A DNA stretch of 60,016 bases from a virus (IMGVR_UViG_3300049930_000038:1-60016), one strand, 5' to 3'. Positions 1 through 59,903 are shown, counted from the first letter of the stretch. Made by a program: numbers and translations. Notes: a model not told the origin generated them from the letters alone.

Positions 1-256
1 ACGGTTTCATCATCGACGGTGTCGATGACCGCGAGCAGATCGAGCCGGAACTCGCCGTTCGCTTTCTCGATCTGACGGTCGCACCACTCGGCGAGCTTGC
101 CGAGCGCCGCCTGCAGGCGCTTGGCTCGATCGAGTGCGTTCATCAGGCAGCACCGTCGACCGCTGCAGGTTCGAGCTCGGTCACGTCGGCGACGTCGTCG
201 TCGCCCGCAGCGGCAGCCTTGCCGTCAGCGCCGCCGCCGCGCTTGCGCTTGCCCGC
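1..256 (+). repeat. Terminal direct repeat / assembly overlap, left copy
   Basis: Matches 59761-60016 except positions 83, 86, 129 (A here, G there). Confidence 0.97.
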
Positions 257-541
257 CATGCCGTCGAAATCCATCGCCTGCTGTGCGTCGACGTTCGCCT
301 CGTGTGTGTCGACCTCGTCGGCGAGCGTCGAGATCTTTTCTTTCAGCAGCTTAAGCTCGCCGTTGTATTTCTCGGCGGCCGCAGCTTTCTTGCCCTCGAC
401 GTCCTCGGCCTTTTTTAGGTACGAGGCGAGCTCGTCGCATCGAGCTCGCCACTGCTCGTCGGTCAGCCTGACGCGAACGAGGCCCGTGCCCTCGTCGTTC
501 GCTGCCGCTCGTTTCTCGCGTCCCTTTTTACGTGCTGCCAT
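143..541 (-). CDS. Hypothetical coiled-coil protein
   Basis: 132 aa, GAGG SD upstream, stop overlaps ATG of the gene at 59346-59903 across the circular junction. Confidence 0.8.
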   Translation of the reverse strand: MAARKKGREKRAAANDEGTGLVRVRLTDEQWRARCDELASYLKKAEDVEGKKAAAAEKYNGELKLLKEKISTLADEVDTHEANVDAQQAMDFDGMAGKRKRGGGADGKAAAAGDDDVADVTELEPAAVDGAA

Positions 542-844
542 GTGTCCTCGCTGTCTGTCGCCCGGCAGCCCGCCGCGATCGGGCTGTCGGTTAGAGGTTT
601 CGAGCGAGGCGGTTTAGCGGGGCGGTTCATTGGGTTTCTCTGCTGCTGTCGGGCGATGGGCCCGGGTGACTGAACGGGTGCCGCTTATCGAACGGCGCCA
701 GAATCGTTTATGAGCGCCTCGCCGGCAGGCATGCACGGCAGGTCGCAATTTCCGGGAACGCTCGAGGACACCCCCAAAGCGCGCCGGCACGAGGCCGGAT
801 CGCCAGCCGCACGCGCGAGCAGGGGTGACGCCCGAGCAGGCGGG

Positions 845-1549
845 TCATGGGTTCACCGGCCGAGGCTTGGCGGGGTCGTGGCAATCGACGACGAGGACCG
901 CCGACCCGACGTGCTGCTCGACGAGGCGTCGCACCCCTGCGGCGCCGAGGTGTTTCGTCAGGCCCGCTTTCGTCAGCGGCAGCCCGGTCGTCACGACCGT
1001 CGCCCGGCACTCGTCGTACCGCGACGACAGCACCGGGAACACCGCGCCGGGTTCCTCGAGCCCGAGGTCGTCGAGCACGAGCAGCCCGCAGCGCGCTGCC
1101 TTGGCGAGCAGCTCGGGCGTGCCGGCGCCGAGGGCATGCCGACGCTCGGCCGTCGCGAGCTCGATCGCCGACACCCAAACGAGATCCGTCGCAGCCTTGC
1201 ATCGCTCGCCGCCCGATGCCTCGAACTCGGCGAGCGCTCGTCGCACGAGGACCGCCGCCGCCGTCGACTTGCCGCAGCCGGTCGGGCCCGACAGCACGGC
1301 CGCGACGGCGTGCGCGTTCCGCACCTTGCCGAGCAGGCGCCGCCCGGCGATGCCGGTGCGCTCGTGCTCGAGCCGTTTCAGCAGGTCGGCGATCGGCGCC
1401 CGGTACGTCGTCGGCACGTTCTGCCATGCGAGGCCCGCCCTGCGGTTCAGCTCGCGCTCGGCCTCGGTTCGCTTTGCCTCGCGAGCTCGCGCCTCGGCGA
1501 CCTCGTCGGGCGCAGGCGGCAGCGTGAACAGGTCACCGGCGGGCTGCAC
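845..1549 (-). CDS. DnaC/IstB-like AAA+ helicase loader
   Basis: Walker A GPTGCGKST, Walker B LLVLDDLG, directly downstream of initiator. Confidence 0.85.
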   Translation of the reverse strand: MQPAGDLFTLPPAPDEVAEARAREAKRTEAERELNRRAGLAWQNVPTTYRAPIADLLKRLEHERTGIAGRRLLGKVRNAHAVAAVLSGPTGCGKSTAAAVLVRRALAEFEASGGERCKAATDLVWVSAIELATAERRHALGAGTPELLAKAARCGLLVLDDLGLEEPGAVFPVLSSRYDECRATVVTTGLPLTKAGLTKHLGAAGVRRLVEQHVGSAVLVVDCHDPAKPRPVNP

Positions 1550-2495
1550 GTCGAGGCCTTTCGGGTGCGGGTGCCGGCAGGTCGAGCGCCTCGAACCCCG
1601 TGCGGTCAGCGTCGGGCTGCAGCTGCGCGACGCCGTTCGTCGGCATGCGCCCTCGCCGCAGCGTCGCGCCGCCCTGCTCGCTGTGCTGCATCGCCTTGGC
1701 TCGGTCCTGCTCGCCCTGCTTTTTGGCGTCGAGCAGCCACAGATCGAACCGCTTGTCAGTGCCCGCCTCGGTCGCCGGGAACTCTTTTCGAAAGCGGGTC
1801 ACGCGGAACCGCTCGGCCTCGTCGGCGACGTTCAGGGCGAACTCGGCGCAGCGCCCGACGTGCCGGTCTTTCGGGCCCGTCCACCATTCGGGCACGTCGA
1901 GCGTCATCGCCGGCTGCGCCTGCAGCACCGGCGCATCGAACACACCCGACGGCAGCGGGGTCGCGCGCGCGGGTCCGTCTTTAGCGGGGTGGTTAGGGAT
2001 CGGATCCGGATCCGAATGATCAGGATCTTCTAAAGACTGATCAGAGGGCAGAGGACAAAGCAAAGCGTTACTCGCGTTACCGGTAACGGTAGTAACAGGG
2101 GCGCTGACGGGTTGAAACGGCGCCGGCTTGGCGCGCTTTTTTGCCTTGAACTTGGCCTGCCGTTCAGCGTTCTGCACCTGCGATTCGGTGCGCATTTCCC
2201 GATATTTGCGATGGTTCAGGACGTGCCACCCGCCGTCGATTTCCTCGATCCGGCGCCCCTCGTGATCCGGCGTGCGGCTGAACGGGTCCGGTTTCTGAAA
2301 CTGATCGAGCGCCTGCAGCACCTCGGGAATCGTCACGCCGGCGTCCTGCGCGAGGCCCGGCACGCTCGACATGACGTTCCCATGCTTGTCAGCGAGCACG
2401 AGCAGCGCGAACCAAGTCAGGCGCAGGTGTGCGGGTTGTCCCACCCACACCGACGATTTCAGGATGTGACCGTATATCTTAACGAAACCACTCAC
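1533..2495 (-). CDS. Phage replication initiator (O-like)
   Basis: N-terminal FVKIYGHILKSSVW wHTH-type start, low-complexity central linker with iteron-like repeats, coupled to DnaC-like gene. Confidence 0.75.
   Translation of the reverse strand: MSGFVKIYGHILKSSVWVGQPAHLRLTWFALLVLADKHGNVMSSVPGLAQDAGVTIPEVLQALDQFQKPDPFSRTPDHEGRRIEEIDGGWHVLNHRKYREMRTESQVQNAERQAKFKAKKRAKPAPFQPVSAPVTTVTGNASNALLCPLPSDQSLEDPDHSDPDPIPNHPAKDGPARATPLPSGVFDAPVLQAQPAMTLDVPEWWTGPKDRHVGRCAEFALNVADEAERFRVTRFRKEFPATEAGTDKRFDLWLLDAKKQGEQDRAKAMQHSEQGGATLRRGRMPTNGVAQLQPDADRTGFEALDLPAPAPERPRRAARR
1998..2096. promoter_or_regulatory. Putative replication origin inside initiator gene
   Basis: GTTAC at 2067 and 2076, GTAAC at 2083 and 2092, palindrome CGTTACCGGTAACG 2075-2088, six GATC in 1998-2042. 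Confidence 0.6.
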
Positions 2496-4598: not shown

Positions 4599-4650
4599 CG
4601 TCAGCCTGCCGCACACTCGCGGCGCTGTTTCAATTCGGAGGGTTCGCACA

Positions 4651-5751
4651 ATGGCACAGCCTGCATTCGACGACGTCGTCACCTCGGTTCGCCCGGCACC
4701 GTTCGCTGCCACCTGCAGGGCGACGGGCATTCACTCGCGCGACCGCGAGCAGTGGCTGCGCGCGCGCCGGCACGGCATGACCGGCAGCGAGGTCGCTGCC
4801 ATCCTGAACCTGCACCCGTATAAGTCGGCGCTCGAGGTGTACGCCGAAAAGGTCGGGCTCGCCCCGGCGAACGACGTGCACGAGGCGGCGCTTTGGGGTC
4901 AGCTGTTCGAGCCGGCGATCCTCGCCGAGTATGGGCGCCGCAGCGGGCGCGTCGTCGTGCCCTCGGGCGAGCTGCTGCAGTCGAAAGCTCGCGAATGGTG
5001 GCTCGTCACGCCCGACGGCGTGCAGCTCGAGGGCCCGAACATGCCGGCTTTCGCCGTCGGCGACGGCCTCGTCGAGATCAAAACCACCGGCAACGGGCCG
5101 TCATGGCACGAGGAAATACCGGCATACGTGCAGGTGCAGGTGCAGCATCAGCTGCTCGTCACGGGCGCGCTGTGGAACACGCTCGCATGGCTGCCGTTTC
5201 CCGAGCGCGAGCTGCAGTGGTACGACGTCGCGCCGCACCGCGAGTTTCAGGCGTTGCTCGCTGCCAAGTGTGACGAATTTTGGACTCGCGTCCTCGAACG
5301 CCGCCCGCCGGATCCGGACGGCAGCGACAGCGCCCGCCGCGCGATCCTCGCGATGAACCCGCAGCTCGACGACGAGGTCGTCGATTTCGACGCGACCGCA
5401 GTGCCCATCGCCGACGAGCTCGAACAGATCAGCGCGACGATCAAGCAGCTCGAGGCGCGCAAGGATCTGATCTCGAACGTCGTCCTGCACACCCTCGGCG
5501 AGCAAAAGGCCGGGCTGCTGCCGGACGGGCGCTATTTCAATTCATGGATCGTCGACGCGAGCGAGTCGCGCTGCAGCTGCGGGCAGGTGCACACGAGTCG
5601 CAAGGGGTTCCGGGCGTGCCGCCTGATGGCGCCGCGAAAGAAACCGCACCCGCTGCCGGTCGGCACCCGGTCGCTGTCGATGAAACCGAGCGACGAAATA
5701 GCCGACCTGCTGCGCGCCTCGCTCGAGCTCGTCAAGCGGGGCGAGCCTTGA
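4651..5751 (+). CDS. YqaJ-family (lambda exo-like) recombination exonuclease
   Basis: WLRARRHGMTGSEVAAIL, TPDG, LVEIKT, YVQVQVQHQLLVTG; GGAGG SD. Confidence 0.9.
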   Translation: MAQPAFDDVVTSVRPAPFAATCRATGIHSRDREQWLRARRHGMTGSEVAAILNLHPYKSALEVYAEKVGLAPANDVHEAALWGQLFEPAILAEYGRRSGRVVVPSGELLQSKAREWWLVTPDGVQLEGPNMPAFAVGDGLVEIKTTGNGPSWHEEIPAYVQVQVQHQLLVTGALWNTLAWLPFPERELQWYDVAPHREFQALLAAKCDEFWTRVLERRPPDPDGSDSARRAILAMNPQLDDEVVDFDATAVPIADELEQISATIKQLEARKDLISNVVLHTLGEQKAGLLPDGRYFNSWIVDASESRCSCGQVHTSRKGFRACRLMAPRKKPHPLPVGTRSLSMKPSDEIADLLRASLELVKRGEP

Positions 5752-6626
5752 CCCTGCCGCAGTGCCCGATGCGCAGCGCGCCCCTGCAGTGCAAGCCTGC
5801 CCTGTTCGGGCCGACCTGCATATTCTGTCACCGGGTGCTCGATAAGTCGCCGGCGTATATCGCGACGCTCGCCGCCGAAATGCTCGCGAGCGACAGCATC
5901 GCGCAGGACGCCCTGCAGGCGGCGGCCGATGGCAAGCTGCAGCCGCCGCCCGCGCCGCTGACCTGCCCGCTGTGCTCGTTCGCGGCCGCCGGCGACAGCG
6001 GGTGCCCGGCGTGCGGCGCGTCGTTCTATCGCGTCGTTCGCCTGCGCGATCCCGAGGGGCAGGTCGTCGCGGCAGCGAGGCCCGAGGTCGTCGCAGCCGC
6101 TCGTCGCATCAAACGGGCGCTGCTCGCCGAGGCTGACCGCGCCGCGGGCATCGACACCAGCACACCGCAGCGCCCGCTCGCCCGCCTCGACGAGGTGCGC
6201 GCCGAGCTCGACGGCGAGCTGTCGATGTCGCAGGCCGAGCGCCTGCTGCGCGAGGACCTGCCGCCGCTGCTCGCCGTGCTCGCCCGGGTGCGCGAGCTCG
6301 TCGACGAGGCCGTCGCCCGAAAGTCGACGGCTGCGCAGCTCGAGGTGTTCGCAGACATCCGTGACCTGCTGTATCCCGGCCTCGCCTCGACATGGCAGAT
6401 CCCGGCCGACATCCCTGACGCGCCGCCCGCGTGCCCGACCTGCGGCAAGCCGATGCAGCGCGCGACGGTCATGTCAGCGGGGCAGCGCCCGCGCGACGCC
6501 GGCGACGTGTGCCTCGACTGCAGCGGCCTGCGCGAACCGCTGCGCCCCTGCGCCGAGTGCGGGCGCCTGACGCAGCACGAGCTGTGTTCGCAGTGCGCTG
6601 ACCCTGACGAATGCGGGCGCGTGTGA
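5748..6626 (+). CDS. Multi-zinc-finger hypothetical protein
   Basis: TTG start overlapping YqaJ stop; seven CxxC pairs. Confidence 0.7.
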   Translation: MTLPQCPMRSAPLQCKPALFGPTCIFCHRVLDKSPAYIATLAAEMLASDSIAQDALQAAADGKLQPPPAPLTCPLCSFAAAGDSGCPACGASFYRVVRLRDPEGQVVAAARPEVVAAARRIKRALLAEADRAAGIDTSTPQRPLARLDEVRAELDGELSMSQAERLLREDLPPLLAVLARVRELVDEAVARKSTAAQLEVFADIRDLLYPGLASTWQIPADIPDAPPACPTCGKPMQRATVMSAGQRPRDAGDVCLDCSGLREPLRPCAECGRLTQHELCSQCADPDECGRV

Positions 6627-6925
6627 TGCGCTCGACCGCCCCGCAGGATCGCTCGCCGATCGGCAAGCGCGTGCAGGATCGCCGGCGGCAGCTCGGGCTG
6701 ACGCCGGCCGAGCTCGGCGAGCGCCTCGGGTGCTCGGCGGGGCGGGTCTACAATATCGAGTGTTACGGGGTCGGAACGCTCGACCTCGTCGAGCAGCTCG
6801 CCCGGGCGCTCGACGAGGACCCTCGATGGATCGCGTTCGGCAGCTATCGCGACGACGAGCTGCGCGAGCACGCCCGGCAGCGCGGCCTCGACGCTGCGCG
6901 TACACTCGACCGCCTCGGCGCTTGA
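6626..6925 (+). CDS. XRE/Cro-like HTH regulator
   Basis: IGKRVQDRRRQLGLTPAELGERLGCSAGRVYNIE. Confidence 0.85.
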   Translation: MRSTAPQDRSPIGKRVQDRRRQLGLTPAELGERLGCSAGRVYNIECYGVGTLDLVEQLARALDEDPRWIAFGSYRDDELREHARQRGLDAARTLDRLGA

Positions 6926-7251
6926 AAGACTTTCCAGATCTGACCGACCGCGAGCTCGCGTTTCGCGCGATGCTGCAGAACCCCGCCAAGCTCGCCGCAT
7001 GGTGCGAGCGAGCGCGCCATCGATGGGAACGCCGGCGCGGCATTGAATGGTTTCACGGCTACAGGCACGGCCGCGAGATCTGGAAAACGGTTCGCCCGCC
7101 GCCCGACGAGAACAGCTCGCCGCGCTTTCGCGAGAACGCCGAGGTCGCCGCGCAGTACCGCGCCGCCGAGGCCGCTGCCAAAGCGGAACGACTCGCGCCT
7201 CCATCAGCGACGACGACCCGCACCGGCACACACCCCGCGCGCACGGGGTGA
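6922..7251 (+). CDS. Hypothetical protein
   Basis: TTGA coupling; LKDFPDLTDRELAF start. Confidence 0.55.
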   Translation: MKDFPDLTDRELAFRAMLQNPAKLAAWCERARHRWERRRGIEWFHGYRHGREIWKTVRPPPDENSSPRFRENAEVAAQYRAAEAAAKAERLAPPSATTTRTGTHPARTG

Positions 7252-7261
7252 CGATTTGCGT

Positions 7262-7286
7262 TCAAGGGCGGCGCAGTCGAGCCGTT
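7262..7286 (+). promoter_or_regulatory. Sigma28-like promoter
   Basis: TCAAG-N14-GCCGTT, ATG 10 nt later at 7297. Confidence 0.65.
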
Positions 7287-7296
7287 CCCTGCCGCC

Positions 7297-7503
7297 ATGG
7301 GTCAAGGCAAGGTCGAGAAACCTGTTACGCTAACCGAGCTGCGCGACGCGAGCACTAGCCTGAAAGCATGGCGCACCGGCGCCCTCGTTCGCCTCGCGCG
7401 CAAGCAGACCGAGCGAGTCATGTCACGACGCAGCGGCACGAGGCCGGTCGTCGCTGACGGGCCGCCGAGCAGCAGGAAAAACCGACATGGGATCAACCGA
7501 TAA
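7297..7503 (+). CDS. Small basic hypothetical protein
   Basis: 68 aa directly after promoter motif, overlaps recT start. Confidence 0.55.
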   Translation: MGQGKVEKPVTLTELRDASTSLKAWRTGALVRLARKQTERVMSRRSGTRPVVADGPPSSRKNRHGINR

Positions 7504-8620
7504 CCGACGACCGCAGGGGCAGCGACCGCAGCAGGCGCGCCCACAGACGCAGGCGCAGACGCCGCCGCAGGGCGAGCAGCGTCAGCCAACCAAGCTCGAC
7601 GACGTGCGGGCCCTCGTGAAACATCGCATGACGCCCGCCATCTCGCGGCTGCTCGCACACCGCTCGGTCGAGGACCGCACGCGGTTCGCGCAGGTGTTCC
7701 TAAACGCGCTCGAGGTGAACCCGGAACTGATCGAGTGCAGCCCGGGCTCGATCGCGCGAGCGATGCAGCACTGCGCCGAGGTCGACCTCGTGCCGGGCGG
7801 CGCCTACCCGCACGCCTATTTGCTTCCCTATTGGAACAAGGATCGCAAGGTTCACGAGGTCCAGTTTCAGATCTCGGTTTGGGGTTATGTCGAGCTGATC
7901 CGCCGCGCCGGCGTTCAAAAGGTGTGGGCCGACGTCATCTATTCGGGCGACAAATACAAGCTGACGAGCGGCAGCGCCGGCAAGTCGATCGAGCACGAGC
8001 CGAATTGGTTCGCGCCTCGCGCCGAGCGGGGCAAGCTCGTCGGCGCGTACGCCTGCGCGCTGCTCGAGAACGGCGAGGTCGTCTGCGAACCCGTCAGCGC
8101 CGAGGATCTCGAGCTCGCCCGCGCGCAGAACCGCGGCAAGTCGCCGGCATGGGAACTGTGGCCCGATCAGCAGCGGCAGAAAGTCGCGCTGAAACGCCTG
8201 CAGAAATACCTGCCGAAAGGCCCGGCTGATCGCGCGCTCGAGCTCGACGAGGATCCCGGCACGCGCCCTCGCGGCATCATCGACGCCGAGGGGCACGAGG
8301 TGTCGCCCGTCGACGACGAGCCGCAGCAGCAGCAGGGCCCGCTCGACCGCGCCGTCGAGCAGCACAAGGTCGAGCAGCAGGTGCAGCAGACGCAGGGCGG
8401 CAGTCAGACGACGACGCTCGATCGCGATCAACTGTTCGGCATGCTGTGCGACGCCGACGAGCGATGGCAGACCGAGCGCGCGCGCGTCGACGGATGGGAC
8501 GACATCGAGGCGCTGTCGGCGCTCGCGTTCCTGCGCACCATCCTCGGCGACGGTGTCGGTCTCGATGGGACACCGCCCGTCATGCCCGAGTGCATGCGCC
8601 TGCCGCGCGACGCCGCGTGA
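7487..8620 (+). CDS. recT: RecT-family single-strand annealing protein
   Basis: HAYLLPY, QFQISVWGYVELIRRAG, GAYACA, KVALKRLQKYLP. Confidence 0.9.
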   Translation: MGSTDNRRPQGQRPQQARPQTQAQTPPQGEQRQPTKLDDVRALVKHRMTPAISRLLAHRSVEDRTRFAQVFLNALEVNPELIECSPGSIARAMQHCAEVDLVPGGAYPHAYLLPYWNKDRKVHEVQFQISVWGYVELIRRAGVQKVWADVIYSGDKYKLTSGSAGKSIEHEPNWFAPRAERGKLVGAYACALLENGEVVCEPVSAEDLELARAQNRGKSPAWELWPDQQRQKVALKRLQKYLPKGPADRALELDEDPGTRPRGIIDAEGHEVSPVDDEPQQQQGPLDRAVEQHKVEQQVQQTQGGSQTTTLDRDQLFGMLCDADERWQTERARVDGWDDIEALSALAFLRTILGDGVGLDGTPPVMPECMRLPRDAA

Positions 8621-8628
8621 TCTTTTCG

Positions 8629-8664
8629 GGACGCCGAGGGGTTAACCTGCCACCCTCGGCGTCC
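8629..8664 (+). terminator. Hairpin after recT
   Basis: 12-bp perfect stem GGACGCCGAGGG/CCCTCGGCGTCC, weak U tract. Confidence 0.5.
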
Positions 8665-8692
8665 GTTCCAATCCGGCTCGGAGGGTTTCAGT

Positions 8693-8878
8693 TTGGCAGT
8701 GTTGCTCGTGTTCGGTCTCGCGCCGCGCGCCGTCGCGATTTATGAGTCGTTCGGTGACAACGACGCCGAGCGCCGCGAGGCGCTCGAACTCGTGCTCGAC
8801 GAGGCGAACCGTCGTCGCCTCGCCGAGCTCGACAATCGATGGCGCCGCGTCGCGCGCCGGGGCGGCGGGTCGTCGTGA
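8693..8878 (+). CDS. Hypothetical protein
   Basis: TTG start with GGAGGG SD, GTGA coupling to next gene. Confidence 0.55.
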   Translation: MAVLLVFGLAPRAVAIYESFGDNDAERREALELVLDEANRRRLAELDNRWRRVARRGGGSS

Positions 8879-9192: not shown

Positions 9193-9543
9193 GTGCCTGC
9201 CGCTGCTGTTTCGTTTCCGACCGACGAGCTCGAACGCTTGCCGGTCGTCACGTGCTCGTGCGGGCAGCACGCCGCCGGCGCCTGCCCCGATGACTATCGG
9301 CGCGACCTCGAACCGAGCGACTCGACGATCGCCGAGCTGCAGTCGGTCATCGTGGCGATGCGACACCGCGACGGCGACGACGCCGTCGAGCTCGAACGCG
9401 ACCTCGACCTGTACCTGCAGCAGCTGCATCACGTCAGCTGCTTGCCCGATCCGCAGTCGCCGCCGCGTTCGGTGCAGCTGATCCGTCTGTCTATCGCGCT
9501 CGCCGCGACCGCCATCCGTTACCGCGAGGAACTGAAACCATGA
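9193..9543 (+). CDS. Hypothetical protein (CxCGxH...C)
   Basis: ATGA coupling to ATPase gene. Confidence 0.65.
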   Translation: MPAAAVSFPTDELERLPVVTCSCGQHAAGACPDDYRRDLEPSDSTIAELQSVIVAMRHRDGDDAVELERDLDLYLQQLHHVSCLPDPQSPPRSVQLIRLSIALAATAIRYREELKP

Positions 9544-10841
9544 CCGAGAAACCGAAAGCCGACCGACCCCTGCGCATCGTTGACCTGAAAGTGCAGAACA
9601 TCAAACGTGTTCGCGCCGTGCACATTACGCCGAACGGCGACAGCACCGTGATCCTCGGCGGCAAAAACGGCGCCGGCAAAACGAGCGTGCTCGACGCGAT
9701 CGCGATGGCGCTCGGCGGCGCGCGCGCGATCCCGAGCGACCCGGTGCGGCACGGCGCCAAACGGGGCAGCATCGTTGCGAACCTCGGCGACCTCGTCGTC
9801 GAGCGCGTGATCTCGCCCGACGGGCAGACGACGCTGACGGTGCGCGACGCCGACGGCAACCGGCAGCGCTCGCCGCAAAAGATACTCGACGAGCTGTGCT
9901 CGCGGATCGCGTTCGACCCGCTCGCGTTCATGTCGATGGATCCGGGCAAGCAGAACGAACAGCTGCGGCAGCTGCTCGGGCTCGACTTTACCGAGCTCGA
10001 TGCCGAGCACGAGCGTTGCTATGCGAAACGCACCGACATCAATCGCGACGCCAAGGCCGCCCGCGCGACGAGCGAGTCGGTCGTCGTGCCGCCGAACACG
10101 CCCGCGAAAGCCGTCGTCGTCGCCGACCTGCTCGCCGAGCTCGAACGGGCGAACGCTGCGGCCGAGGTCGTGCGCACACACGAGCGGGCCCTGACGACGC
10201 TGCGCACCGACATCGGGACGCTGACGACCGAGCTCGCCCGCATCGAACAGCAGCTGATGCAGAAACGGATGCAGCTGAAAGCGCTCGAACGGCAGGCCCC
10301 TGCGGCCGCGCCGGACACCGCTGCGATCAGCAAACAGATCGCCGAGGCCGAGGCGACGAACCGCGCCGTGCACGCCCGCGGGCAGCGCGACGCGCTCGAG
10401 CAAAAGGCGAACCTGCTCGACGCCGAGGCCGCCAAGCTGACCGCGCGCCTCGCCGAAATCGAGTCCGAGAAAGCCAAGGCGATCGCCGCCTGCGCGTTCC
10501 CGGTGCCGGGCCTGACCCTCGGCGACAGCGGGCCCATGCTCGACGGCGTGCCGCTCGAGCAGGCATCGCAGGCGCAAAAGCTGCGGGTCAGCGTCGCCCT
10601 CGGCATCGCGATGAACCCGCGCCTGAAAGTGCTGCTCGTGCGCGACGCCTCGCTGCTCGACGAAACGAGCCTCGCCCTCGTCGCCGAGATGGCATCGGCT
10701 GCCGACGCGCAGGTGTGGCTCGAACGGGTCGGCGACGGCGACCCGACCGCAGTCGTCATCGCCGACGGGCAGGTGTCCGGCGGCGACGTCGAGCCGGCGA
10801 ACGACTCGATCCCTGCGCCCGACGCGGCTGCCTCGGCATGA
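9540..10841 (+). CDS. SMC/SbcC-like AAA ATPase with coiled coil
   Basis: GKNGAGKTSVLDAI, long coiled coil, ASQAQ signature, LLVRDASLLD. Confidence 0.88.
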   Translation: MTEKPKADRPLRIVDLKVQNIKRVRAVHITPNGDSTVILGGKNGAGKTSVLDAIAMALGGARAIPSDPVRHGAKRGSIVANLGDLVVERVISPDGQTTLTVRDADGNRQRSPQKILDELCSRIAFDPLAFMSMDPGKQNEQLRQLLGLDFTELDAEHERCYAKRTDINRDAKAARATSESVVVPPNTPAKAVVVADLLAELERANAAAEVVRTHERALTTLRTDIGTLTTELARIEQQLMQKRMQLKALERQAPAAAPDTAAISKQIAEAEATNRAVHARGQRDALEQKANLLDAEAAKLTARLAEIESEKAKAIAACAFPVPGLTLGDSGPMLDGVPLEQASQAQKLRVSVALGIAMNPRLKVLLVRDASLLDETSLALVAEMASAADAQVWLERVGDGDPTAVVIADGQVSGGDVEPANDSIPAPDAAASA

Positions 10842-46025: not shown

Positions 46026-46032
46026 GCCGCAT

Positions 46033-46061: not shown

Positions 46062-46273
46062 GCCCGGCGGCCCGAGCTCGCGCCGGCGTCAGCGACGCGA
46101 CGCCGCCGAGCCCGCAGCTGCGACTGCCACACCTGACCGAGCAGGCAGGTCGCGACGGCGCCGATGACCGCAGGCCACCGGCTGCCGCCGAGGCACAGCC
46201 CGATGACGCCGCCGATCAGGATGCCCCCGGCGAACAGCAGCGCGACCCACCGCAGCGCATGGCGCAGGGTCAA
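46058..46273 (-). CDS. Small two-TM membrane protein
   Basis: TTG start overlapping upstream stop; two hydrophobic segments. Confidence 0.55.
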   Translation of the reverse strand: MTLRHALRWVALLFAGGILIGGVIGLCLGGSRWPAVIGAVATCLLGQVWQSQLRARRRRVADAGASSGRRA

Positions 46274-46434
46274 AACGGCATCTCTGCGTCGCGAGCTCGC
46301 GCTGCCCATCGCCATCGGGATCGCGCCGGGTCCTGCCACGGGCGCCCGCGGTACGTCGAGCGCCATCGCGGATCCATCCACGCCCGGAACGGCGTCGACC
46401 GGCAGCGCCGGCGACGGTCGCGCAGGCGCATCAT
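46270..46434 (-). CDS. Arg/Trp-rich 54-aa peptide (not in ORF track)
   Basis: MMRLRDRRRRCRSTPFRAWMDPRW...EMPF, coupled on both sides. Confidence 0.45.
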   Translation of the reverse strand: MMRLRDRRRRCRSTPFRAWMDPRWRSTYRGRPWQDPARSRWRWAARARDAEMPF

Positions 46435-46625
46435 CGCTGCCCTGCTTTCCGCGGTCCCTCGTGCAACGCCTGCCGCCCGTTGATCGTGATGAACAGCTGC
46501 CGTCGGTTCGACCCATCGCCGCAGGCGACGGGCAGGTGCTGCAGCTTGACGACGGGCCCGGCGCGCCGCTCGAGCTCGGCGCGCTGCTGCGGGTCGTCGT
46601 CGCCCTTTCGCAGCTCGTCGGGCAT
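46431..46625 (-). CDS. Hypothetical protein
   Basis: ATG 46625 overlapping upstream stop. Confidence 0.5.
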   Translation of the reverse strand: MPDELRKGDDDPQQRAELERRAGPVVKLQHLPVACGDGSNRRQLFITINGRQALHEGPRKAGQR

Positions 46626-46879
46626 CAGTCCTCGAACCCCGGGATCCGAGGGCGCTCGTCGGGCACCGCGACGGGAACCCGGGAAACGCGGTCGTGCGGC
46701 GGGCAGTAGTGCGCGACGCCGGCGACCGGGGCAGCGTGTTTTTTGCACATGACCCGGCTGCAGCTGCGATGCGGCGCGCCGTTGCGCGAGGCGATGGGAT
46801 AGTCGCACAGATAGAACCCGGGCTGCCCGCAGGTCGCGCACGCCGGGCGCTTGCCGCCCTTGCCGAGGGTTTCAGTCAC
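46625..46879 (-). CDS. Zinc-finger protein
   Basis: CATC...LCDYP...CSRVMCKKH...YCPPH. Confidence 0.7.
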   Translation of the reverse strand: MTETLGKGGKRPACATCGQPGFYLCDYPIASRNGAPHRSCSRVMCKKHAAPVAGVAHYCPPHDRVSRVPVAVPDERPRIPGFED

Positions 46880-47471
46880 TCGACCCCCCGCCGCTGTCGC
46901 CGCCCGAGCTGCCGCCCGAGTCGCCGCCGCCGGTGTCGCTGTACCCGCCGCCGTTGTCACCCGAGCTCGGCGCGTCCCACCCGCCCGAGGCGCCGCCGCC
47001 GGCGAACGACCCGCCGCCGCCCTCGAACGTCGTCGAGGAAAGCGACATTTCAGGCGCAGCGCCGCCGCCCGAGCTCGACAGGTCGAGGGGCACGGGGTCG
47101 CCATAGTAGACCGGCGAGGGCGACGCCGGCGCCGAGGGTCGCCGGAACGGGCCGCGGTCGACCCGCGCCGGGGTCGGCGAGCTGCCGCCGCCGCCGCCGC
47201 CCGGGAACACCGTTGCCCGGACGGTGCCCTGGATCGTCCTGCCGCTCGCGCCGGTTCCGGCAGCGACCCGCTGCGCCGGCGGGTGTGGCCACACTCGCGG
47301 CGCGTACGCCTGCGGGCGCTCGCGAGGGTCGATGCGACCGTCGTACGCCGCAGCGAGGCGCCGGCGTTTCTCGCGGCTGACGAGCCACGCTCGCGCGATG
47401 ATGCCTGCCGCCGCGACGAGGGCGAGGCCGGCCGCTGCTATCGCGATCGTTCCGATGATGTCGTCGTTCAT
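46872..47471 (-). CDS. Membrane protein with Gly/Ser-rich tail
   Basis: N-terminal TM; FEGGGGSFAGGGASGGW. Confidence 0.7.
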   Translation of the reverse strand: MNDDIIGTIAIAAAGLALVAAAGIIARAWLVSREKRRRLAAAYDGRIDPRERPQAYAPRVWPHPPAQRVAAGTGASGRTIQGTVRATVFPGGGGGGSSPTPARVDRGPFRRPSAPASPSPVYYGDPVPLDLSSSGGGAAPEMSLSSTTFEGGGGSFAGGGASGGWDAPSSGDNGGGYSDTGGGDSGGSSGGDSGGGSSD

Positions 47472-47737
47472 TCGTCGTGTCCGTTCGGGGTGGGTTTCAG
47501 GGGCGGCGGGCCCGCCGCGTTCATCTCGCCGAGGCACAGCACGGGCAGCAGCTCGACGGCGTGCGTCGGCTCGGGCGCCTCGCTGCCGTCCCATGCCCTG
47601 CCGCAGGCCGTGCACTCGTAAAAGTGCACGGCCGGCTCGACCCCGCTTTTCGTTGCCACCCGAGGGCGCAGCGAGGTCGAGCCGCAGGCGCCGCACGCCG
47701 GGCGCCATGGGTCGTCGGTGTCGCTACTGCCCGTCAT
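47468..47737 (-). CDS. Zinc-ribbon protein
   Basis: CGACGS...YECTACGRAW. Confidence 0.6.
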   Translation of the reverse strand: MTGSSDTDDPWRPACGACGSTSLRPRVATKSGVEPAVHFYECTACGRAWDGSEAPEPTHAVELLPVLCLGEMNAAGPPPLKPTPNGHDE

Positions 47738-48020
47738 ACTGCGACGCCGCAGTCGAAAGGGCGACGACCGCTGCGCCGAGCGCGAGCTGCGCGTCGTTGA
47801 CGACCTGATAGGCGGCGGCCCATGCCGGATCGGCGTTGCGCGCCGTCGCGAGCGCTGCCGTCTGCGCCGCCATCGCCGAGGCGACCGCCGCCGACTCGGC
47901 GGCACACGCTGCCTGCGCCGCGTTCTCGAGTGCATTGAACGCGGCGCTCGCCGTCGCGAGGTCGTTCTGCGCGTCGAGCACGCCCTGCGCCGCCGTTTGG
48001 ATCTCTGCTGCTGTGGCCAT
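47724..48020 (-). CDS. Ala-rich helical protein
   Basis: 98 aa, AAGGGA SD. Confidence 0.7.
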   Translation of the reverse strand: MATAAEIQTAAQGVLDAQNDLATASAAFNALENAAQAACAAESAAVASAMAAQTAALATARNADPAWAAAYQVVNDAQLALGAAVVALSTAASQYDGQ

Positions 48021-48053
48021 AGGTTCCCTTTTCTGCGGCTGTGCCGCGTTGAC

Positions 48054-48470
48054 TTATCGCAGGGCGTCGATCCTCGGCAGGCCGTGCTCGCGACGCTTGC
48101 GCCGCAGGTACTGCTTGCACACCTGCTCGGCGCCGGCGACCCCGTGCACCGCGACGGCAGCGCTCGTCGAGGCGACCGTGCCCCGGCTGTCGAGCAGCAG
48201 CCATGCGACGAACGAGTCGACGCCCTTGACGACGCGCCGCGCGACGTACCCGTACCCGGGCAGCGCCCGTTTGCGCGGCCCTCGGCGACGAGCTGCCCGA
48301 GCGTTCGCCGCGAGCACGGCGTCGCGCCATGCCTGCGCGGCAGCGAGCGAGGCCCGCACCCCGCCGTGCGAATTGAAGCTGAACAGCTTGGTTCTGCTGA
48401 GGGGCGGCCGCGCGATCCAGCCGCGCGTACCCTGATACTCGTGCCTCGTGATGTAACGTCGGTCGGTCAT
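48054..48470 (-). CDS. AP2-domain DNA-binding protein (two AP2-like units)
   Basis: GWIAR...TKLFSFNSHGGVRASLAAAQAWRD and a second degenerate unit. Confidence 0.7.
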   Translation of the reverse strand: MTDRRYITRHEYQGTRGWIARPPLSRTKLFSFNSHGGVRASLAAAQAWRDAVLAANARAARRRGPRKRALPGYGYVARRVVKGVDSFVAWLLLDSRGTVASTSAAVAVHGVAGAEQVCKQYLRRKRREHGLPRIDALR

Positions 48471-49243
48471 GCCCTCGTCGCCTTTCGGATCTCTGCCTTG
48501 ATTTCCTCGAACCTCGCTGCTGCCTCGCCGAGCGGCACGAGCGGCGCGTGCCGATATGCCTGCATCAGGTCGTAAAATGCGCTGCTCTCGAGCCACGCCT
48601 CGACCCGCTCGACGGCAGGCAGGGGCGCGCCCATAAGGGGCAGGACGAACGCGAGCAGCTCGTCGAGCTCGAGCAACACGGCCGCGTGTTCGTCCTGCGC
48701 GTCGCGGTCCCTGTCGCCGCCGGCGACCTCGGCCGCACGTGCCCGCGCCTGCCGCCGCCGGCGCAGCTCGTCGCCGATGCGCAGCAGGTCGCGCGGTTCG
48801 CCGGGCGGCCGCGGGTCGGGCTGCACCTTGCCGATCCAGGCGAGCAGCTCGTCGTGCTCGCGCACGAGCACCTCGCTGCACGCTGACCCGAGCGCTTTCA
48901 GGTCGCGAGCATGCTGCTGCCGCTCGCGAATGTGCTCGATCAGGTCGCGCCATTTCTCGCGCTGCCCGTGCCATGTGTCGGCTGCGGTTTTGAACGCCGA
49001 CGCGATCGGAACGTCGCGGTCGATCAGCTCGACGTCATCGCCGAGCAGCTCGTTCAGGATGTCGCGCGCGAGGGCGCCGGTCATCGACGCGCCGAACACG
49101 CGCTGCTCGTTCGGCAGGTCCTCGTCGCTGATGCGGCGCACCTGCTCGACGACGCGAGACAGCGCGCCGAGCGGCACGTGTGCGTCGAGCAGCAGGCGCA
49201 GCACGGCGCGCACCCGCAGGACGGTTCGCCATCGCGCGTTCAT
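48467..49243 (-). CDS. Hypothetical protein
   Basis: ATG 49243, ATGA coupling; FYDLMQAYRHAP motif. Confidence 0.7.
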   Translation of the reverse strand: MNARWRTVLRVRAVLRLLLDAHVPLGALSRVVEQVRRISDEDLPNEQRVFGASMTGALARDILNELLGDDVELIDRDVPIASAFKTAADTWHGQREKWRDLIEHIRERQQHARDLKALGSACSEVLVREHDELLAWIGKVQPDPRPPGEPRDLLRIGDELRRRRQARARAAEVAGGDRDRDAQDEHAAVLLELDELLAFVLPLMGAPLPAVERVEAWLESSAFYDLMQAYRHAPLVPLGEAAARFEEIKAEIRKATRA

Positions 49244-50067
49244 GACCGCCCCTCGAGGTGCTCGCTCGCCGGCGTGCCGTCGGGTCGCACGCGCCCGGTG
49301 TGCGGGTGACGTGTCCACCCCTCGGGCTCGCCGTGCCCGTCCCACGACAGCGCCGCCCGCCATCCGGCGTCGCGGTGTTCGGCGTCATAGTCCCACGTGC
49401 CGAGGAACTCGAGGCTGCCGAGCATGCCGACCGACAGCTGCACGCCCGCCGCATGCCACGGCAGCAGGAACAGCGAGCGCCCATCCTGCAGGCGCGTGAC
49501 CCACAGATAATCGACGTGCGGGCTGCTGCGGAACGCAGCCATGCCGATCCGCTGCGCGACGACGAGCTCGATGTCGCTGACCGGGCGAGGTCGTGTCCAG
49601 TCGCCGCCCGGCGGGGTGCGCACGCTCGCCCGCGAGGGCACGACCCCGCGCGCCGTCGGCGGCAGGCCGACGCTCGAACCGTCGTCGTGCACGACCTCGA
49701 GCTCGACCGTGCTGCGGTTCGTCACGAGCACGTCGCCGGCGACGGTCGCATGCACGAGCAGCTCGATATGCGGCGGCGGGTTCAGCTGCCGCAGGCCGCG
49801 GTCGAGCGCCGCCCGCTGCTCGGCGTCGGTCGCCGTGCGCACGTGCACGCGGTCGCGGATCGGGTCGTCGATGATGACGCCTGCGGCCCGCGCGGCGTGC
49901 AGGCGGGCCTCGGCGGCGTTCCCGGTGTGGCTGCCGACGTATCCCTCGATCGCGTCAGCGAGCTCGTCGAGGACCGTCGCGCTGCAGCCGTCCTGATCGC
50001 GCCATTGCTTGGCGAACGTCGTCGCCTTTTGAATCAGCAGCACGAGGTCGACACGCGGCGCGTTCAC
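49240..50067 (-). CDS. Hypothetical mosaic protein
   Basis: C-terminal WDGHGEPEGWTRHPHTGRVRPDG. Confidence 0.7.
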   Translation of the reverse strand: MNAPRVDLVLLIQKATTFAKQWRDQDGCSATVLDELADAIEGYVGSHTGNAAEARLHAARAAGVIIDDPIRDRVHVRTATDAEQRAALDRGLRQLNPPPHIELLVHATVAGDVLVTNRSTVELEVVHDDGSSVGLPPTARGVVPSRASVRTPPGGDWTRPRPVSDIELVVAQRIGMAAFRSSPHVDYLWVTRLQDGRSLFLLPWHAAGVQLSVGMLGSLEFLGTWDYDAEHRDAGWRAALSWDGHGEPEGWTRHPHTGRVRPDGTPASEHLEGRS

Positions 50068-50818: not shown

Positions 50819-50866
50819 CCGGGTGCCTCCGGTGTTCCTATGTAGGTCGGTGTACTTAACGCCGGG

Positions 50867-52459
50867 TCACGGCGCGCCCGCCATCGTATACGAACCGCCG
50901 CTCGCCGCACCTGACATAACGACGCCGAGCATCATTGCCGCCTGATCCCGCAGCTGCGTCAGCGCGTCGGCGCGGTTGTCTCGCCCGCCCGGCATGCCGG
51001 TGAACAACCGCAATTCCTTACAGAACCCCGGAACCCACTCGCCTTTCCGCGGCACCCGCACGCGGCCCGCTCGGGCGTCGGCTGCCGTCGGCAGGCTGCG
51101 CAGGTATTTGGATCCGCGAGGCACGACGGGCACGATGAAAAGCGATTGATGGGTCTGCGCGGCGACGAGCTCGAGCAGCCGGAACGCCGACACCTCCTCG
51201 AGCAGCACCGGCGCGCCCGGGTAATGCACCTGCTGCAGGTCGTTCAGGAACTCGAGCAGCTCGAGCGGTTCGAGCCACAGCTGCTCGGCCCAAACGACAT
51301 CGAGGTTCACGTCGTGCACGACCTCGCGGCGACGGGTTTCCGGATTGATGACCTCGCGTTTCGTCAGGTACGCCCATGCGACCACGATGCCCGAGGGGTC
51401 GGGCTCGGTCCGCTTGCGCTGCTGACGCTGCTTGCTCGGGTCTTTCTTTTCGATACCGGGGTCGCAGCTGATCAGCAGGATCGCGCCGTCGCTGCGCGCG
51501 CGGTCGTACCGCGCGAGCTCGGGAAACAGGCGCTTGCCGCGAGGGCTGACGTCCTGCATCAGGTTCGGCCAAAAGTAGGGGCCGAGCAGCGACGCCCACT
51601 CGATGATTGCCGGCAGGTCATAGCGCCACGGGCACAGCGGTTTGCCGCCGACGATCCGTTCGTTGCCGTCCTCGTCGCTCGTCACCTCGATGTCCTCGAG
51701 GATCGGCAGCGTGATCACCTCGAACCGCGGCGCGTCCGGATCCTTTTCCAACCAGTCTTTTATGCGCCCGATCGGATCGTCCTCGTTCCACCGTTGCATG
51801 CCGACGAACACGCTGCAGCCCGGCTCGCGCCGCGACATCAGCGTGCCGCGCAGAGTGTTGTAAGCCTCGTCGCGGTACAGCTGCGACTCGGCCTCGCTGT
51901 GATCTTTCAGCGGGTCGTCGTACAGGATCAGGTCGAACCCCTCGCCGATCCATTGCCCGTGCCGGCCGCCGGCGACGAACTGCCCGCCCGAGCTCGTCTG
52001 CCAAAAGGCGACTGACTTGCTCGGGTCGAAATGCTGCGCGGTCCGCTGTTCCTCGCCGACCCATACGCCCGCCTGCGCGGCGAGCTCGCGCACCTCGCGG
52101 CTGCGCCTGAACGCGATGTCGTTCGCATACGTGCAGAACGCGACGCGAGGCCTCGTGCGATACCGCAGCAGGCGCGCTGCCGCAGCCTGAAATATGCTCG
52201 TTTTGATGTGCCGCGAGGGCGCCTCGATGATGCAGAACACCGGGCCTTTCATCGCGCGGTCGAACGCATCGACGAGCCGGTGCATGTGCGTCGGCTTGCG
52301 ATAGCGCGGCTGATGCAGCGCGATGAACTTGTAAAGCTCGTGCTCGGCCTGCCGCACGTCGAGCGCGCGTCGCGCCTTGGCGCGCATCAGCAGGTCGCGC
52401 CGGTGCGCCTTGGCGATGTCGTCGTCGTCGGTCAGGTCGATCGGCAGCGGCGCGATCAA
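50867..52459 (-). CDS. terL: Terminase large subunit
   Basis: APSRHIKTS Walker A, LILYDDP Walker B, MQRWNEDD, nuclease DPG...DNRADA. Confidence 0.92.
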   Translation of the reverse strand: MIAPLPIDLTDDDDIAKAHRRDLLMRAKARRALDVRQAEHELYKFIALHQPRYRKPTHMHRLVDAFDRAMKGPVFCIIEAPSRHIKTSIFQAAAARLLRYRTRPRVAFCTYANDIAFRRSREVRELAAQAGVWVGEEQRTAQHFDPSKSVAFWQTSSGGQFVAGGRHGQWIGEGFDLILYDDPLKDHSEAESQLYRDEAYNTLRGTLMSRREPGCSVFVGMQRWNEDDPIGRIKDWLEKDPDAPRFEVITLPILEDIEVTSDEDGNERIVGGKPLCPWRYDLPAIIEWASLLGPYFWPNLMQDVSPRGKRLFPELARYDRARSDGAILLISCDPGIEKKDPSKQRQQRKRTEPDPSGIVVAWAYLTKREVINPETRRREVVHDVNLDVVWAEQLWLEPLELLEFLNDLQQVHYPGAPVLLEEVSAFRLLELVAAQTHQSLFIVPVVPRGSKYLRSLPTAADARAGRVRVPRKGEWVPGFCKELRLFTGMPGGRDNRADALTQLRDQAAMMLGVVMSGAASGGSYTMAGAP

Positions 52460-58388: not shown

Positions 58389-58669
58389 ACGCCGAGGCGT
58401 TCGAGGTCGCATGGCGCCAAGGCCGGCGCCGGTTCCCGGGCGTCACCCGCATCGAGGTGTCGCCCGCGTACGTCGAGGGGTGGGAACGTCGCACCCGCGC
58501 GCTGCGGTTCGAGCGCGAGCGATGGGTCGAGCTCGTCGAGGCCGAGCCGAACCGGCGCGGGAACTATCTGCGGCAGGCCCGAGTCGACGAGCTCGACGCC
58601 GAGCTGTGGCTGCTCGCCCTCGTGCGGCATCACGTGTTCCGGATCAACGACGCGGCCGCTGCCGCCTGA
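58385..58669 (+). CDS. Hypothetical protein
   Basis: ATGA coupling; converges on ruvC. Confidence 0.6.
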   Translation: MNAEAFEVAWRQGRRRFPGVTRIEVSPAYVEGWERRTRALRFERERWVELVEAEPNRRGNYLRQARVDELDAELWLLALVRHHVFRINDAAAAA

Positions 58670-59227
58670 TCACACGGCGACCCGCCGCGCCGCCCGCACG
58701 AGCGCCCGCTGCTGCTCGACCCGGTGCACCCGGGCGCCGCAGACCGCGACGGCGAGCGCGTCGGCGACGTGCGCGCTGCAGCGCTTGACGCCGAGCAGGC
58801 GCGCGACGCCGGCTTTCACCTCGTCTTTCGAGGCGTGCCCGTGCCCGCGCCCGAGCAGCGTGACCTTGACCGTCGAGGGCTGCGGCTCGTAACACGGGAT
58901 CGCCTCGGCGAGCGCCGTGCACGCCGCCATGCGCAGGATGCCCGTGACCGCATGCACGTATCGCAGCGAGATGTGCGCCGGCTGCCCCTCGCGATCCTTG
59001 CCGACGTGCACGCCCGCCTGCGCCTCGAGCGCCATCACGTCAGGGCACCATTGATTCATGATGCCGTCGACGCGCAGGCAGATCCGGTTCAGTCGTTCCG
59101 TGTGCGGCAGGTCGGCGTCGGGCTCGCCGATGTCGCCCCGGTCGAGCACCCTCGTGCTCGACGGCTGCAGGTCGATGACCCCGAACGCGAGCGTCGCGAG
59201 CCCGGGGTCGAACCCGACGACGATCAA
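58670..59227 (-). CDS. ruvC: RuvC-like Holliday junction resolvase
   Basis: VVGFDPGLATLAFG, MALE, GHASKDEVK, ADALAVA. Confidence 0.9.
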   Translation of the reverse strand: MIVVGFDPGLATLAFGVIDLQPSSTRVLDRGDIGEPDADLPHTERLNRICLRVDGIMNQWCPDVMALEAQAGVHVGKDREGQPAHISLRYVHAVTGILRMAACTALAEAIPCYEPQPSTVKVTLLGRGHGHASKDEVKAGVARLLGVKRCSAHVADALAVAVCGARVHRVEQQRALVRAARRVAV

Positions 59228-59349
59228 CTGATCACCCTTTCGAGCAGCCACCCCGCGGCGACCGTCAGGCACACGAGGATCGTGCACGCGACGGCCGCCT
59301 GCGGGCCCGTGATGCTCGCCGGGATCGCCGCGACGAGCTCGGCGATCAT
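59224..59349 (-). CDS. Small membrane peptide (41 aa, not in ORF track)
   Basis: MIAELVAAIPASITGPQAAVACTILVCLTVAAGWLLERVIS, coupled on both sides. Confidence 0.55.
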   Translation of the reverse strand: MIAELVAAIPASITGPQAAVACTILVCLTVAAGWLLERVIS

Positions 59350-59903
59350 GGCTGCGGCGCCGCGACGACGGTGCCGTCGGGTAGCGTGACCGCCGGCTCG
59401 CCCGGCTCGGGATACCGCAGCTCGCCGAGGGCGAGCGTCTGCCCGCCCTCGAGCACGACGACGCCGGACTGCTCGATCTGCACCATGCCCGGCGGCGGCG
59501 GCAGCGGGGTGTCGAGGCCCGACAGGTCGTCCTCGTCGCCGAGGTCGAACGAGCTCGGCAGCGGCGGCGGCGCGTCGGTTTCCGCCTCGTGCAGGTCGTC
59601 GCCCTGGTGTCCGGGCGACGAGCGCGACCGCCGCGTCGTCGGCAGCGGCGACGGCGACGGCGAGCGCCGCGAGTCGTTCCGTTCGTCGAGCGCGAGCTGC
59701 AGCGACAGCTGCAGGTAATGCTGCTCGCGGTCGATCGCGAGGCCGCGCATCACGAGCCCGACGGTTTCATCATCGACGGTGTCGATGACCGCGAGCAGAT
59801 CGAGCCGGAACTCGCCGTTCGCTTTCTCGATCTGACGGTCGCGCCGCTCGGCGAGCTTGCCGAGCGCCGCCTGCAGGCGCTTGGCTCGGTCGAGTGCGTT
59901 CAT
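59346..59903 (-). CDS. Hypothetical protein
   Basis: 185 aa, helical N-terminus and acidic Pro-rich C-terminus. Confidence 0.7.
   Translation of the reverse strand: MNALDRAKRLQAALGKLAERRDRQIEKANGEFRLDLLAVIDTVDDETVGLVMRGLAIDREQHYLQLSLQLALDERNDSRRSPSPSPLPTTRRSRSSPGHQGDDLHEAETDAPPPLPSSFDLGDEDDLSGLDTPLPPPPGMVQIEQSGVVVLEGGQTLALGELRYPEPGEPAVTLPDGTVVAAPQP

Follow-up and report, generated by a model that had tools for sequence, protein, structure and literature searches.

Near-complete loss of five asymmetric tetranucleotides from the genome of a high-GC contractile phage and its possible origin in host restriction

Genome Content

IMGVR_UViG_3300049930_000038 is a virus record of 60,016 bp with a GC content of 69.6%. 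The record is complete in the stretch of DNA analyzed here, which is referred to as the window. Genes for a tail sheath (33043-34554, minus strand, start at 34554), a tape-measure protein (29387-31552, minus strand), a portal (44169-46025), and a large terminase (50867-52459), among others, are encoded; therefore, the window is the whole genome of a tailed, contractile phage (a myovirus). These genes were recognized in Pfam and PHROG scans, as were those for RecT (7487-8620) and an SbcC-like ATPase (9540-10841, plus strand, matching Pfam AAA_23 and PHROG 1499). Most of the early genes have no recognizable function in the same scans. PDB sequence searches with four large unknown proteins of the window returned no match, and no tRNA genes were found in it. 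The subject of this study is a property of the whole genome, namely the near absence of five tetranucleotide words (GAAG, GGAG, CCAG, TGAG, and AGAG) from both of its strands.

Loss of Five Tetranucleotide Words

The five words occur 158 times on the two strands, against ~2,125 copies expected from a synonymous codon shuffle. In other words, ~93% of the expected copies are gone. A first-pass annotation of this DNA had claimed a depletion of GAAG, GGAG, and CCAG on both strands, and the claim was borne out under four null models. Two further depleted words, TGAG/CTCA and AGAG/CTCT, lay beyond its list. The nulls were base composition, a second-order Markov model, a synonymous codon shuffle within genes (200 replicates), and synonymous swaps that also preserve dinucleotides (30 replicates). 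The codon shuffles depend on our own gene call, in which 92 genes cover 93.5% of the genome; the Markov nulls are independent of that call.

On the plus strand, GAAG was counted 6 times, CTTC 16, GGAG 5, CTCC 22, CCAG 31, and CTGG 17 times. Comparison words are plentiful on the same strand (CGAG 1047, CTCG 1106, GCAG 751, CTGC 871, and GATC 420), and the abundance of CGAG, GCAG, and GATC had indeed been pointed out in the first-pass annotation. The contrast between neighboring words is very sharp: on both strands together there are 27 copies of GGAG versus 2153 of CGAG. Relative to base composition, the observed/expected ratio of the depleted words is 0.035-0.10. Tetranucleotide z-scores under the Markov null, a check that had been proposed at the outset, range from -12 to -17 per strand and leave the top words unchanged.

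The annotation had also named a codon-preserving shuffle as the test of its claim. The signal persists in this shuffle, and it persists when dinucleotides are kept as well. GGAG/CTCC was observed 27 times against a shuffle mean of 578 (z -31), a ratio of 0.05 that becomes 0.13 with dinucleotides kept. Likewise, there were 22 copies of GAAG/CTTC against 365 (z -26, ratios 0.06 and 0.08) and 48 of CCAG/CTGG against 754 (z -41, ratios 0.06 and 0.18). The loss is milder for TGAG/CTCA, with 26 copies against 251 (z -17, ratios 0.10 and 0.19), and for AGAG/CTCT, with 35 against 177 (z -12, ratios 0.20 and 0.39). Among the 136 strand-symmetric tetramers, these are the lowest five in the dinucleotide-preserving null. 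A second tier of words (TGGA, CCAC, GGAC, CCCC, and others) has ratios of 0.25-0.45 in the plain shuffle that rise to 0.58-0.78 once dinucleotides are kept, so most of this tier can be put down to CC/GG dinucleotides. GAGG/CCTC is found 799 times against 790 expected from the codon shuffle (ratio 1.01). In the same null AGGA has a ratio of 0.75, and AAAG (1.35), CAAG (1.20), CGAG (1.58), and GCAG (1.52) are over-represented. Palindromes are only mildly affected; for example, the ratio is 0.51 for GGCC, and CTCGAG stands at 0.66 of its Markov expectation.

The loss can be seen within a single gene. The ATPase gene had been described as lacking both strand forms of GAAG, GGAG, and CCAG where about 40 copies were due. 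The recount gave 0 against 40.6 expected from base composition. TGAG, CTCA, AGAG, and CTCT are absent from it too, so all ten strand forms are missing.

Two other words are scarce in the window. GGGGA/TCCCC, which contains none of the five words, occurs 4 times against ~121 expected (and 4 times against 126 in a related genome, G001, described below). ACGCGT occurs ~3 times against a Markov expectation of ~21. Both may be further avoided sites.

The Loss Acts on DNA and Is Specific to Tetramers

The depletion is present in every context of the genome. Copies in sense, antisense, and intergenic DNA number 16, 6, and 0 for GAAG; 18, 2, and 7 for GGAG; 13, 12, and 1 for TGAG; 22, 8, and 5 for AGAG; and 14, 27, and 7 for CCAG. 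The intergenic DNA (4,140 nt) would be expected to hold 24 copies of GAAG, 49 of GGAG, 22 of TGAG, 23 of AGAG, and 50 of CCAG, but it holds 0, 7, 1, 5, and 7, respectively. All four bases on the 5' side and all four on the 3' side of the words are affected: 39 of 40 flanked pentamers have ratios of 0.01-0.34, and AGAGA (0.71) is the sole exception. A scan of the window for 5-mers and 6-mers gave no signal of a size comparable to that of the tetramers. Thus, the loss acts on the DNA itself, in sense, antisense, and intergenic sequence and in all frames, and it is specific to tetramers.

These observations dispose of several explanations. A single longer motif is ruled out by the depletion at all flanks together with the lack of a comparable 5-mer or 6-mer signal. 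The count per word group is 0-7 in every 3-kb bin, and this uniform poverty along the genome rules out a mosaic or recently acquired region such as a foreign island. A strand-asymmetric escape from Type III restriction is ruled out too, because both orientations survive (plus/minus GAAG 6/16, GGAG 5/22, CCAG 31/17, TGAG 16/10). Depletion of a CRISPR protospacer-adjacent motif (PAM) reportedly occurs in phages, where very short motifs are counter-selected on both strands. However, avoidance of a 2-3-nt PAM (AAG or GAG, for example) would lower its count after any base, and the over-representation of AAAG, CAAG, CGAG, and GCAG in the window rules this out.

Avoidance of a 6-bp motif of a Type IIG or BREX system can be dismissed on similar grounds, as the depletion is not confined to particular flanking bases. 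Eco57I, BpmI, BseRI, and BREX, which had been offered in the first-pass annotation as examples, are therefore not needed, and its alternative suggestion of short undescribed motifs fits better than these 6-bp enzymes. The accessible part of a survey of phages likewise argues against the 6-bp examples, as phages are not found there to avoid the sites of Type I or Type IIG systems (PMC6286503).

Could the words be avoided in RNA instead of in DNA? Codon-pair bias, avoidance of internal sites that resemble ribosome-binding sites, or escape from an mRNA-cutting toxin might be imagined. GGAG is the core of the ribosome-binding site, and its survivors lie mostly in the sense orientation (18 sense versus 2 antisense). 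However, the reverse complements are equally rare in genes (the antisense counts given above are 6 for GAAG, 2 for GGAG, 12 for TGAG, 8 for AGAG, and 27 for CCAG), intergenic DNA is depleted too, and the ribosome-binding-like words GAGG and AGGA are not depleted or only mildly so. An effect at the level of RNA or translation is extremely improbable, and the antisense and intergenic depletion rules out a codon-pair or translational bias limited to the sense strand.

Synonymous Recoding and Surviving Copies

How are the words removed from genes without changing the proteins? Codon context in the window gives a direct view. AAG follows a G-ending codon in 3 of 281 cases, compared with 135 of 189 for AAA. 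GAG follows a C-ending codon in 848 of 880 cases, CAG does so in 8 of 686, and TTC in 3 of 433. CTG precedes a G-starting codon in 4 of 865 cases and CTC in 704 of 714. The examples of such codon choice in the first-pass annotation hold: all seven codon pairs quoted there are in frame where they were placed, and GAG GAA CAG AAA is found in frame in the tape-measure gene (30614-30625, minus strand). The codon before the Trp codon TGG is A-ending in 71 of 212 cases and C-ending in 20 of 212 in the window; the corresponding figures in G002, another related genome, are 18 and 77 of 250. The rare A-ending codons before TGG are an unusual usage, which avoids CTGG.

Further evidence comes from orthologous genes. 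Window and G002 share 52 reciprocal-best pairs with a mean identity of 55.5%, and the comparison was limited to sites with identical residues where a word is present in G002. At such sites the window has kept GAAG in 2 of 28 cases, GGAG in 2 of 28, TGAG in 1 of 74, AGAG in 2 of 41, and CCAG in 12 of 72. Control words were kept far more often (CGAG 376 of 472, GCAG 185 of 227, GAGG 115 of 160, GACG 227 of 314, and GCCG 332 of 547). In other words, retention at conserved residues was 1-17% for the depleted words versus 61-81% for the controls. The replacements include transitions as well as transversions; for example, TGAG became TCAG in 52 of 73 cases. Thus, the words were lost through synonymous recoding driven by selection on DNA, and the over-represented CGAG, GCAG, and GAAA are products of this recoding. 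The recoding proposed earlier is confirmed for both strands and all reading frames, and the intergenic DNA is affected as well.

Some of the surviving copies are found at positions of likely function. Seven of the 27 surviving GGAG/CTCC copies sit 4-18 nt upstream of start codons. Two of them are on the plus strand, at 4637-4640 (a ribosome-binding position 13 nt upstream of the start at 4651) and at 8680-8683 (18 nt upstream of the start at 8699). The other five are on the minus strand, at 15609-15612 (4 nt upstream of the start at 15606), 33009-33012 (10 nt, start at 33000), 34565-34568 (11 nt, the tail sheath start at 34554), 38557-38560 (7 nt, start at 38551), and 50827-50830 (10 nt, start at 50818). 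Six of these had already been recognized at Shine-Dalgarno positions, and the copy at 33009 is an addition. Where residues match, 37 of 70 window survivors are shared with G001, and for GGAG alone the figure is 9 of 10. This sharing fits an old purge in which some sites are held by function.

Different Word Sets in Related Phages

DNA and protein searches of a phage collection found no close relative of the window (terminase identity <=28%, sheath <=29%). Relatives were found among contigs of uncultured phages, and a terminase tree divides them into two well-supported groups. Clade A has the order (L026, (G002, (window, G001))) with support of 100/99. About 20 further clade-A contigs are represented by terminase proteins alone and lie outside the word profiles.

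G001 has a profile like that of the window (GGAG 0.10, GAAG 0.09, CCAG 0.13, TGAG 0.10, AGAG 0.35). The same profile is seen in five shorter contigs (L023, L025, L037, L038, and L042), which makes six further sequences in all. G002, of which L040 is a copy, shows a weaker and uniform version (GGAG 0.27, GAAG 0.28, CCAG 0.47, TGAG 0.88, AGAG 0.94) and is especially poor in GAAGA (8 versus 88). L026 has lost another set. Observed counts against composition are 3 versus 265 for GAGG/CCTC, 13 versus 265 for GGAG, 26 versus 265 for GTGG, 22 versus 122 for GATG, and 66 versus 577 for GGGG, and GAAG is over-represented (326 versus 122). L041 repeats this profile, with 7 copies of GAGG/CCTC versus 50; GAAG stands at 2.7-3.5 times expectation in these two contigs. 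Seven loci of clade B, with a GC content of 63-69%, have 1.8-3.3 times the expected GAAG, and their ratios for GGAG and CCAG are 0.53-1.15 and 0.57-1.39, respectively.

Clade A thus has three differing profiles and the sister clade, whose GC is similar, has none, and therefore the extreme word loss is a derived trait of clade A whose content differs among sublineages. This comparison with related phages, which had been proposed along with the original claim, shows a clade-specific trait and not a general high-GC bias. GGAG and GAAG drop jointly in the window, G001, and G002, and they are uncoupled in L026 and L041. In G002, GAAG and GGAG have fallen, TGAG and AGAG have not, and CCAG stands at 0.47. 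This pattern fits GRAG (GAAG, GGAG), WGAG (TGAG, AGAG), and CCAG as three separate targets and suggests at least three units in the window line.

A different explanation is that the phage copies the oligonucleotide usage of its host, set by a mutation or repair spectrum or by a host that avoids its own sites, and that phage DNA is not selected as a target. A milder background bias is indeed common to the whole family, including the non-depleted clade: CC/GG is low, GGCC is at 0.34-0.68, CCCC at 0.14-0.48, and TCGA at 2.3-5 times expectation. This background is probably compositional. In the window, CGA/TCG is over-represented 2.5 times and TCGA 4.7 times, with CC/GG at 0.66. TCGA and CGAG are high in the non-depleted sister clade too, so the CGA/TCGA excess looks family-wide, compositional, and separate from the word loss. 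The loss itself is difficult to explain in the same way. Close relatives with equal gene order and GC have three differing depleted sets and the sister clade has none, and therefore each host would need its own extreme bias. The sharp contrast between GGAG and CGAG also speaks against it, and the mixture of transversions and transitions among the replacements does not fit one mutational pathway. Furthermore, GGAG is still present at ribosome-binding positions, so the host presumably uses GGAG-type sites across many genes. Shared compositional bias is thus a doubtful account of the word loss, and restriction would remain the underlying cause in the case of a host that avoids its own sites.

Methyltransferases and Nucleases in the Two Clades

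A phage can also protect its DNA by methylating it. Six-frame searches with three Pfam families of DNA methyltransferases (PF01555, PF00145, and PF02086) gave no match in the window, G001, or G002 (0 of 3). Pfam or PHROG scans of 70 of the 92 predicted window proteins likewise gave no methyltransferase. Five of six near-complete clade-B genomes have a clear match, to PF01555 in G003 and G005 and to PF00145 in G004, G006, and G008. A weak PF02086 match in the sixth, G007, was discounted because its homologues in L026 match no methyltransferase family. The same searches gave no match in G009, a 29% fragment. The picture, drawn from a single phylogenetic contrast, is that the clades counter restriction in alternative ways, clade B by self-methylation and clade A by site loss. 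Because the non-depleted sister clade carries methyltransferase genes, the group offers a natural experiment on site avoidance versus self-methylation.

The L026 homologues lie just upstream of the terminase genes, in the region 6623-8856. They are two paralogues (6623-7567 and 8152-8856), ~50% identical to the G007 open reading frame and without a Pfam family, and they flank a gene with a ParB N-terminal domain (7552-8148). Clade B has the ParB-like part as a fusion with a PF01555 methyltransferase.

A phage may also avoid words that its own weapon attacks. In such a case, host DNA would be destroyed at the words by a low-specificity nuclease made by the phage or a partner element, and the phage would be spared for want of the words. 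Most early genes lack a recognizable function and could include an unrecognized nuclease, and the variation of the avoided set between sister lineages is what an evolving phage-borne specificity would produce. However, the only nuclease-like genes found encode a YqaJ exonuclease (4651-5751) and a RuvC-like resolvase (58670-59227, minus strand; PF02075, E 2.8e-15), and to our knowledge neither family reads 4-bp words. The 158 sites that are left would be cut by a self-made nuclease, and we know of no phage that uses such a strategy without modifying its own DNA. Self-avoidance is very improbable on this evidence.

Restriction as the Probable Cause

What drove the loss? The explanation that is favored, with some confidence, is avoidance of several host restriction systems with asymmetric 4-bp sites; that nucleases are the agent, and to which family they belong, is inferred. 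Incoming, unmethylated phage DNA would be cut by host nucleases at each copy of a word, and each copy lost would improve the chance of escape and of a successful infection. The targets would be at least three: GRAG, WGAG, and CCAG. No protein need change for any of the five words to be removed: a different third base in the codon before, or a synonymous codon in place of the codon concerned, is enough (NNG-GAG to NNC-GAG, NNC-CAG to NNG-CAG, NNG-AAG to NNG-AAA, CTG-G to CTC-G, and CTC-A to CTG-A), and because of this selection could have driven them to 5-20% of expectation. Part of the remaining copies would be held by function, as in the GGAG ribosome-binding sites. With no recognizable DNA methyltransferase, the phage lineage would escape by losing the words themselves. 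The likeliest agents would be Type IIS-like systems in which methyltransferase and nuclease are separate, as in the MnlI/HpyAVI and MboII/HpyAII kinds.

Restriction-site loss is a textbook anti-restriction strategy, and the classic cases of single-word avoidance, such as GATC or GGCC, are palindromes. Unusual here are the asymmetry of the tetranucleotides, the joint removal of five of them to 5-20% of expectation, and the removal of other sets by sister lineages. CCTC is the MnlI site. The MnlI/HpyAVI and MboII/HpyAII systems resemble the present case in that they read purine-rich, asymmetric words of 4-5 bp, including GGAG and GAAG, and in that specificity shifts between close homologues. Further points of likeness are the avoidance of GAGG/CCTC plus GGAG in L026 and L041 and the scarcity of GAAGA in G002. 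Unlike the MnlI/HpyAVI pattern, the window keeps GAGG, and we know of no counterpart of TGAG, AGAG, or CCAG in either kind. Nucleases with even shorter asymmetric sites are known: the Chlorella-virus nicking enzymes Nt.CviQII (R^AG) and Nt.CviPII (^CCD) read 2-3 bp, and their sites RAG and CCD overlap the cores of the window words. However, these belong to viruses of eukaryotic algae that are self-protected by methylation, and avoidance of RAG would extend to CGAG, AAAG, and CAAG, all of them plentiful in the window.

Published work provides precedents. As described in the accessible text, M1.HpyAVI methylates GAGG, GGAG, and GAAG, homologues in other strains methylate GAGG only, and one residue governs the recognition of GGAG (PMC5173035). 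Likewise, an environmental m4C methyltransferase is described as reading CTCC, and M2.HpyAII, which recognizes GAAGA, is given as its nearest characterized relative (PMC8919816, accessible part). Near-complete site elimination in about one-tenth of viral genomes, mainly for Type II systems with separate enzymes, is reported in the available portion of the phage survey (PMC6286503). The window phage resembles the virulent phages treated in that portion in the near-removal of short words, its lineage specificity, unchanged proteins, and the lack of a recognizable methyltransferase of its own. It differs in that most avoidance reported there concerns orthodox Type II sites (PMC6286503), and here five asymmetric 4-bp words were lost jointly.

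The methyltransferases just mentioned raise another prospect. The words could be methyltransferase sites in some hosts, and their loss would prevent the phage DNA from being marked and then cut by a Type IV system in the next host. Enzymes of the required specificity exist, as far as the accessible texts go, for GGAG, GAAG, and GAGG (PMC5173035) and for CTCC (PMC8919816), and the predicted sequence pattern is equal to that of restriction avoidance. By the same token, no sequence feature separates the two. According to the available part of the survey (PMC6286503), avoidance linked to Type IV systems is no more than weak and is put down mainly to Type II systems. Avoidance of modification is an improbable cause by comparison with ordinary restriction avoidance.

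Several points weigh against restriction as the cause. The main word of HpyAVI and MnlI, GAGG, is undepleted in the window, and a classical 4-bp enzyme would still cut at the 158 sites left. A selective gradient would have to stay steady for a long time if ~2,000 sites were to be lost singly. No restriction enzyme that reads just GAAG, TGAG, AGAG, or CCAG is known to us. Apart from the two methyltransferase papers, a literature search found no described system that reads these tetramers and no phosphorothioate motifs that contain them, although supplementary motif tables may list some. The methyltransferase contrast between the clades is a single phylogenetic contrast based on three Pfam families, with L026 checked over ~3 kb only. 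Finally, terminase alignments were run twice against species-representative bacterial genomes without retrieving any prophage relative, and no host, methylome, or nuclease came to light.

A bolder reading, and a rather unlikely one, is that very short asymmetric words are read by an undescribed DNA-targeting immunity of soil bacteria, or by a phage-borne nuclease that destroys host DNA, with a specificity that drifts fast between strains. The word profiles would then be a read-out of the recognition code, with GRAG, WGAG, and CCAG as the words in one host line and GAGG, GGAG, GTGG, and GATG in another.

If avoidance of restriction is the true cause, it predicts specificities for which there is no characterized nuclease (GRAG, WGAG, and CCAG), and 4-bp Type IIS-like systems would be a dominant pressure on these soil phages. 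For phages that have not been cultured, word profiles would also be usable in the search for hosts, as hosts should methylate exactly these words.

Environment and Other Features

Public sequencing runs that contain window DNA are metagenomes only, and the sole run that holds the full DNA is labeled soil. A protein atlas returned viral clusters only. The endolysin (gene at 14753-15217) resembles peptidases of phages with Gram-negative hosts, a likeness that gives a weak hint of such a host here. Metagenome runs from several studies (X2-X5), of soil as well as aquatic origin, contain short contigs that are 90-97% identical to window positions 30001-50000. These contigs show 1,664 differences from the window across four runs. 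The commonest changes are G-to-C and C-to-G, for example 103 and 126 of 658 in X3. Toggling between G and C at third positions would give such swaps.

Two small genes of the window deserve mention. One of them (47468-47737, minus strand) encodes a small zinc-ribbon protein of the TFIIS type (PF01096, E 1.5e-5). The other lies within the structural module (36626-37063, minus strand) and encodes a protein of 145 amino acids with an Acb2/Tad1 hairpin domain that scores above the cut-off (PF24729, E 9.6e-10). Judging from this domain match, the protein is a candidate sponge against cyclic-nucleotide immune signaling and may be a second anti-defense device of the phage.

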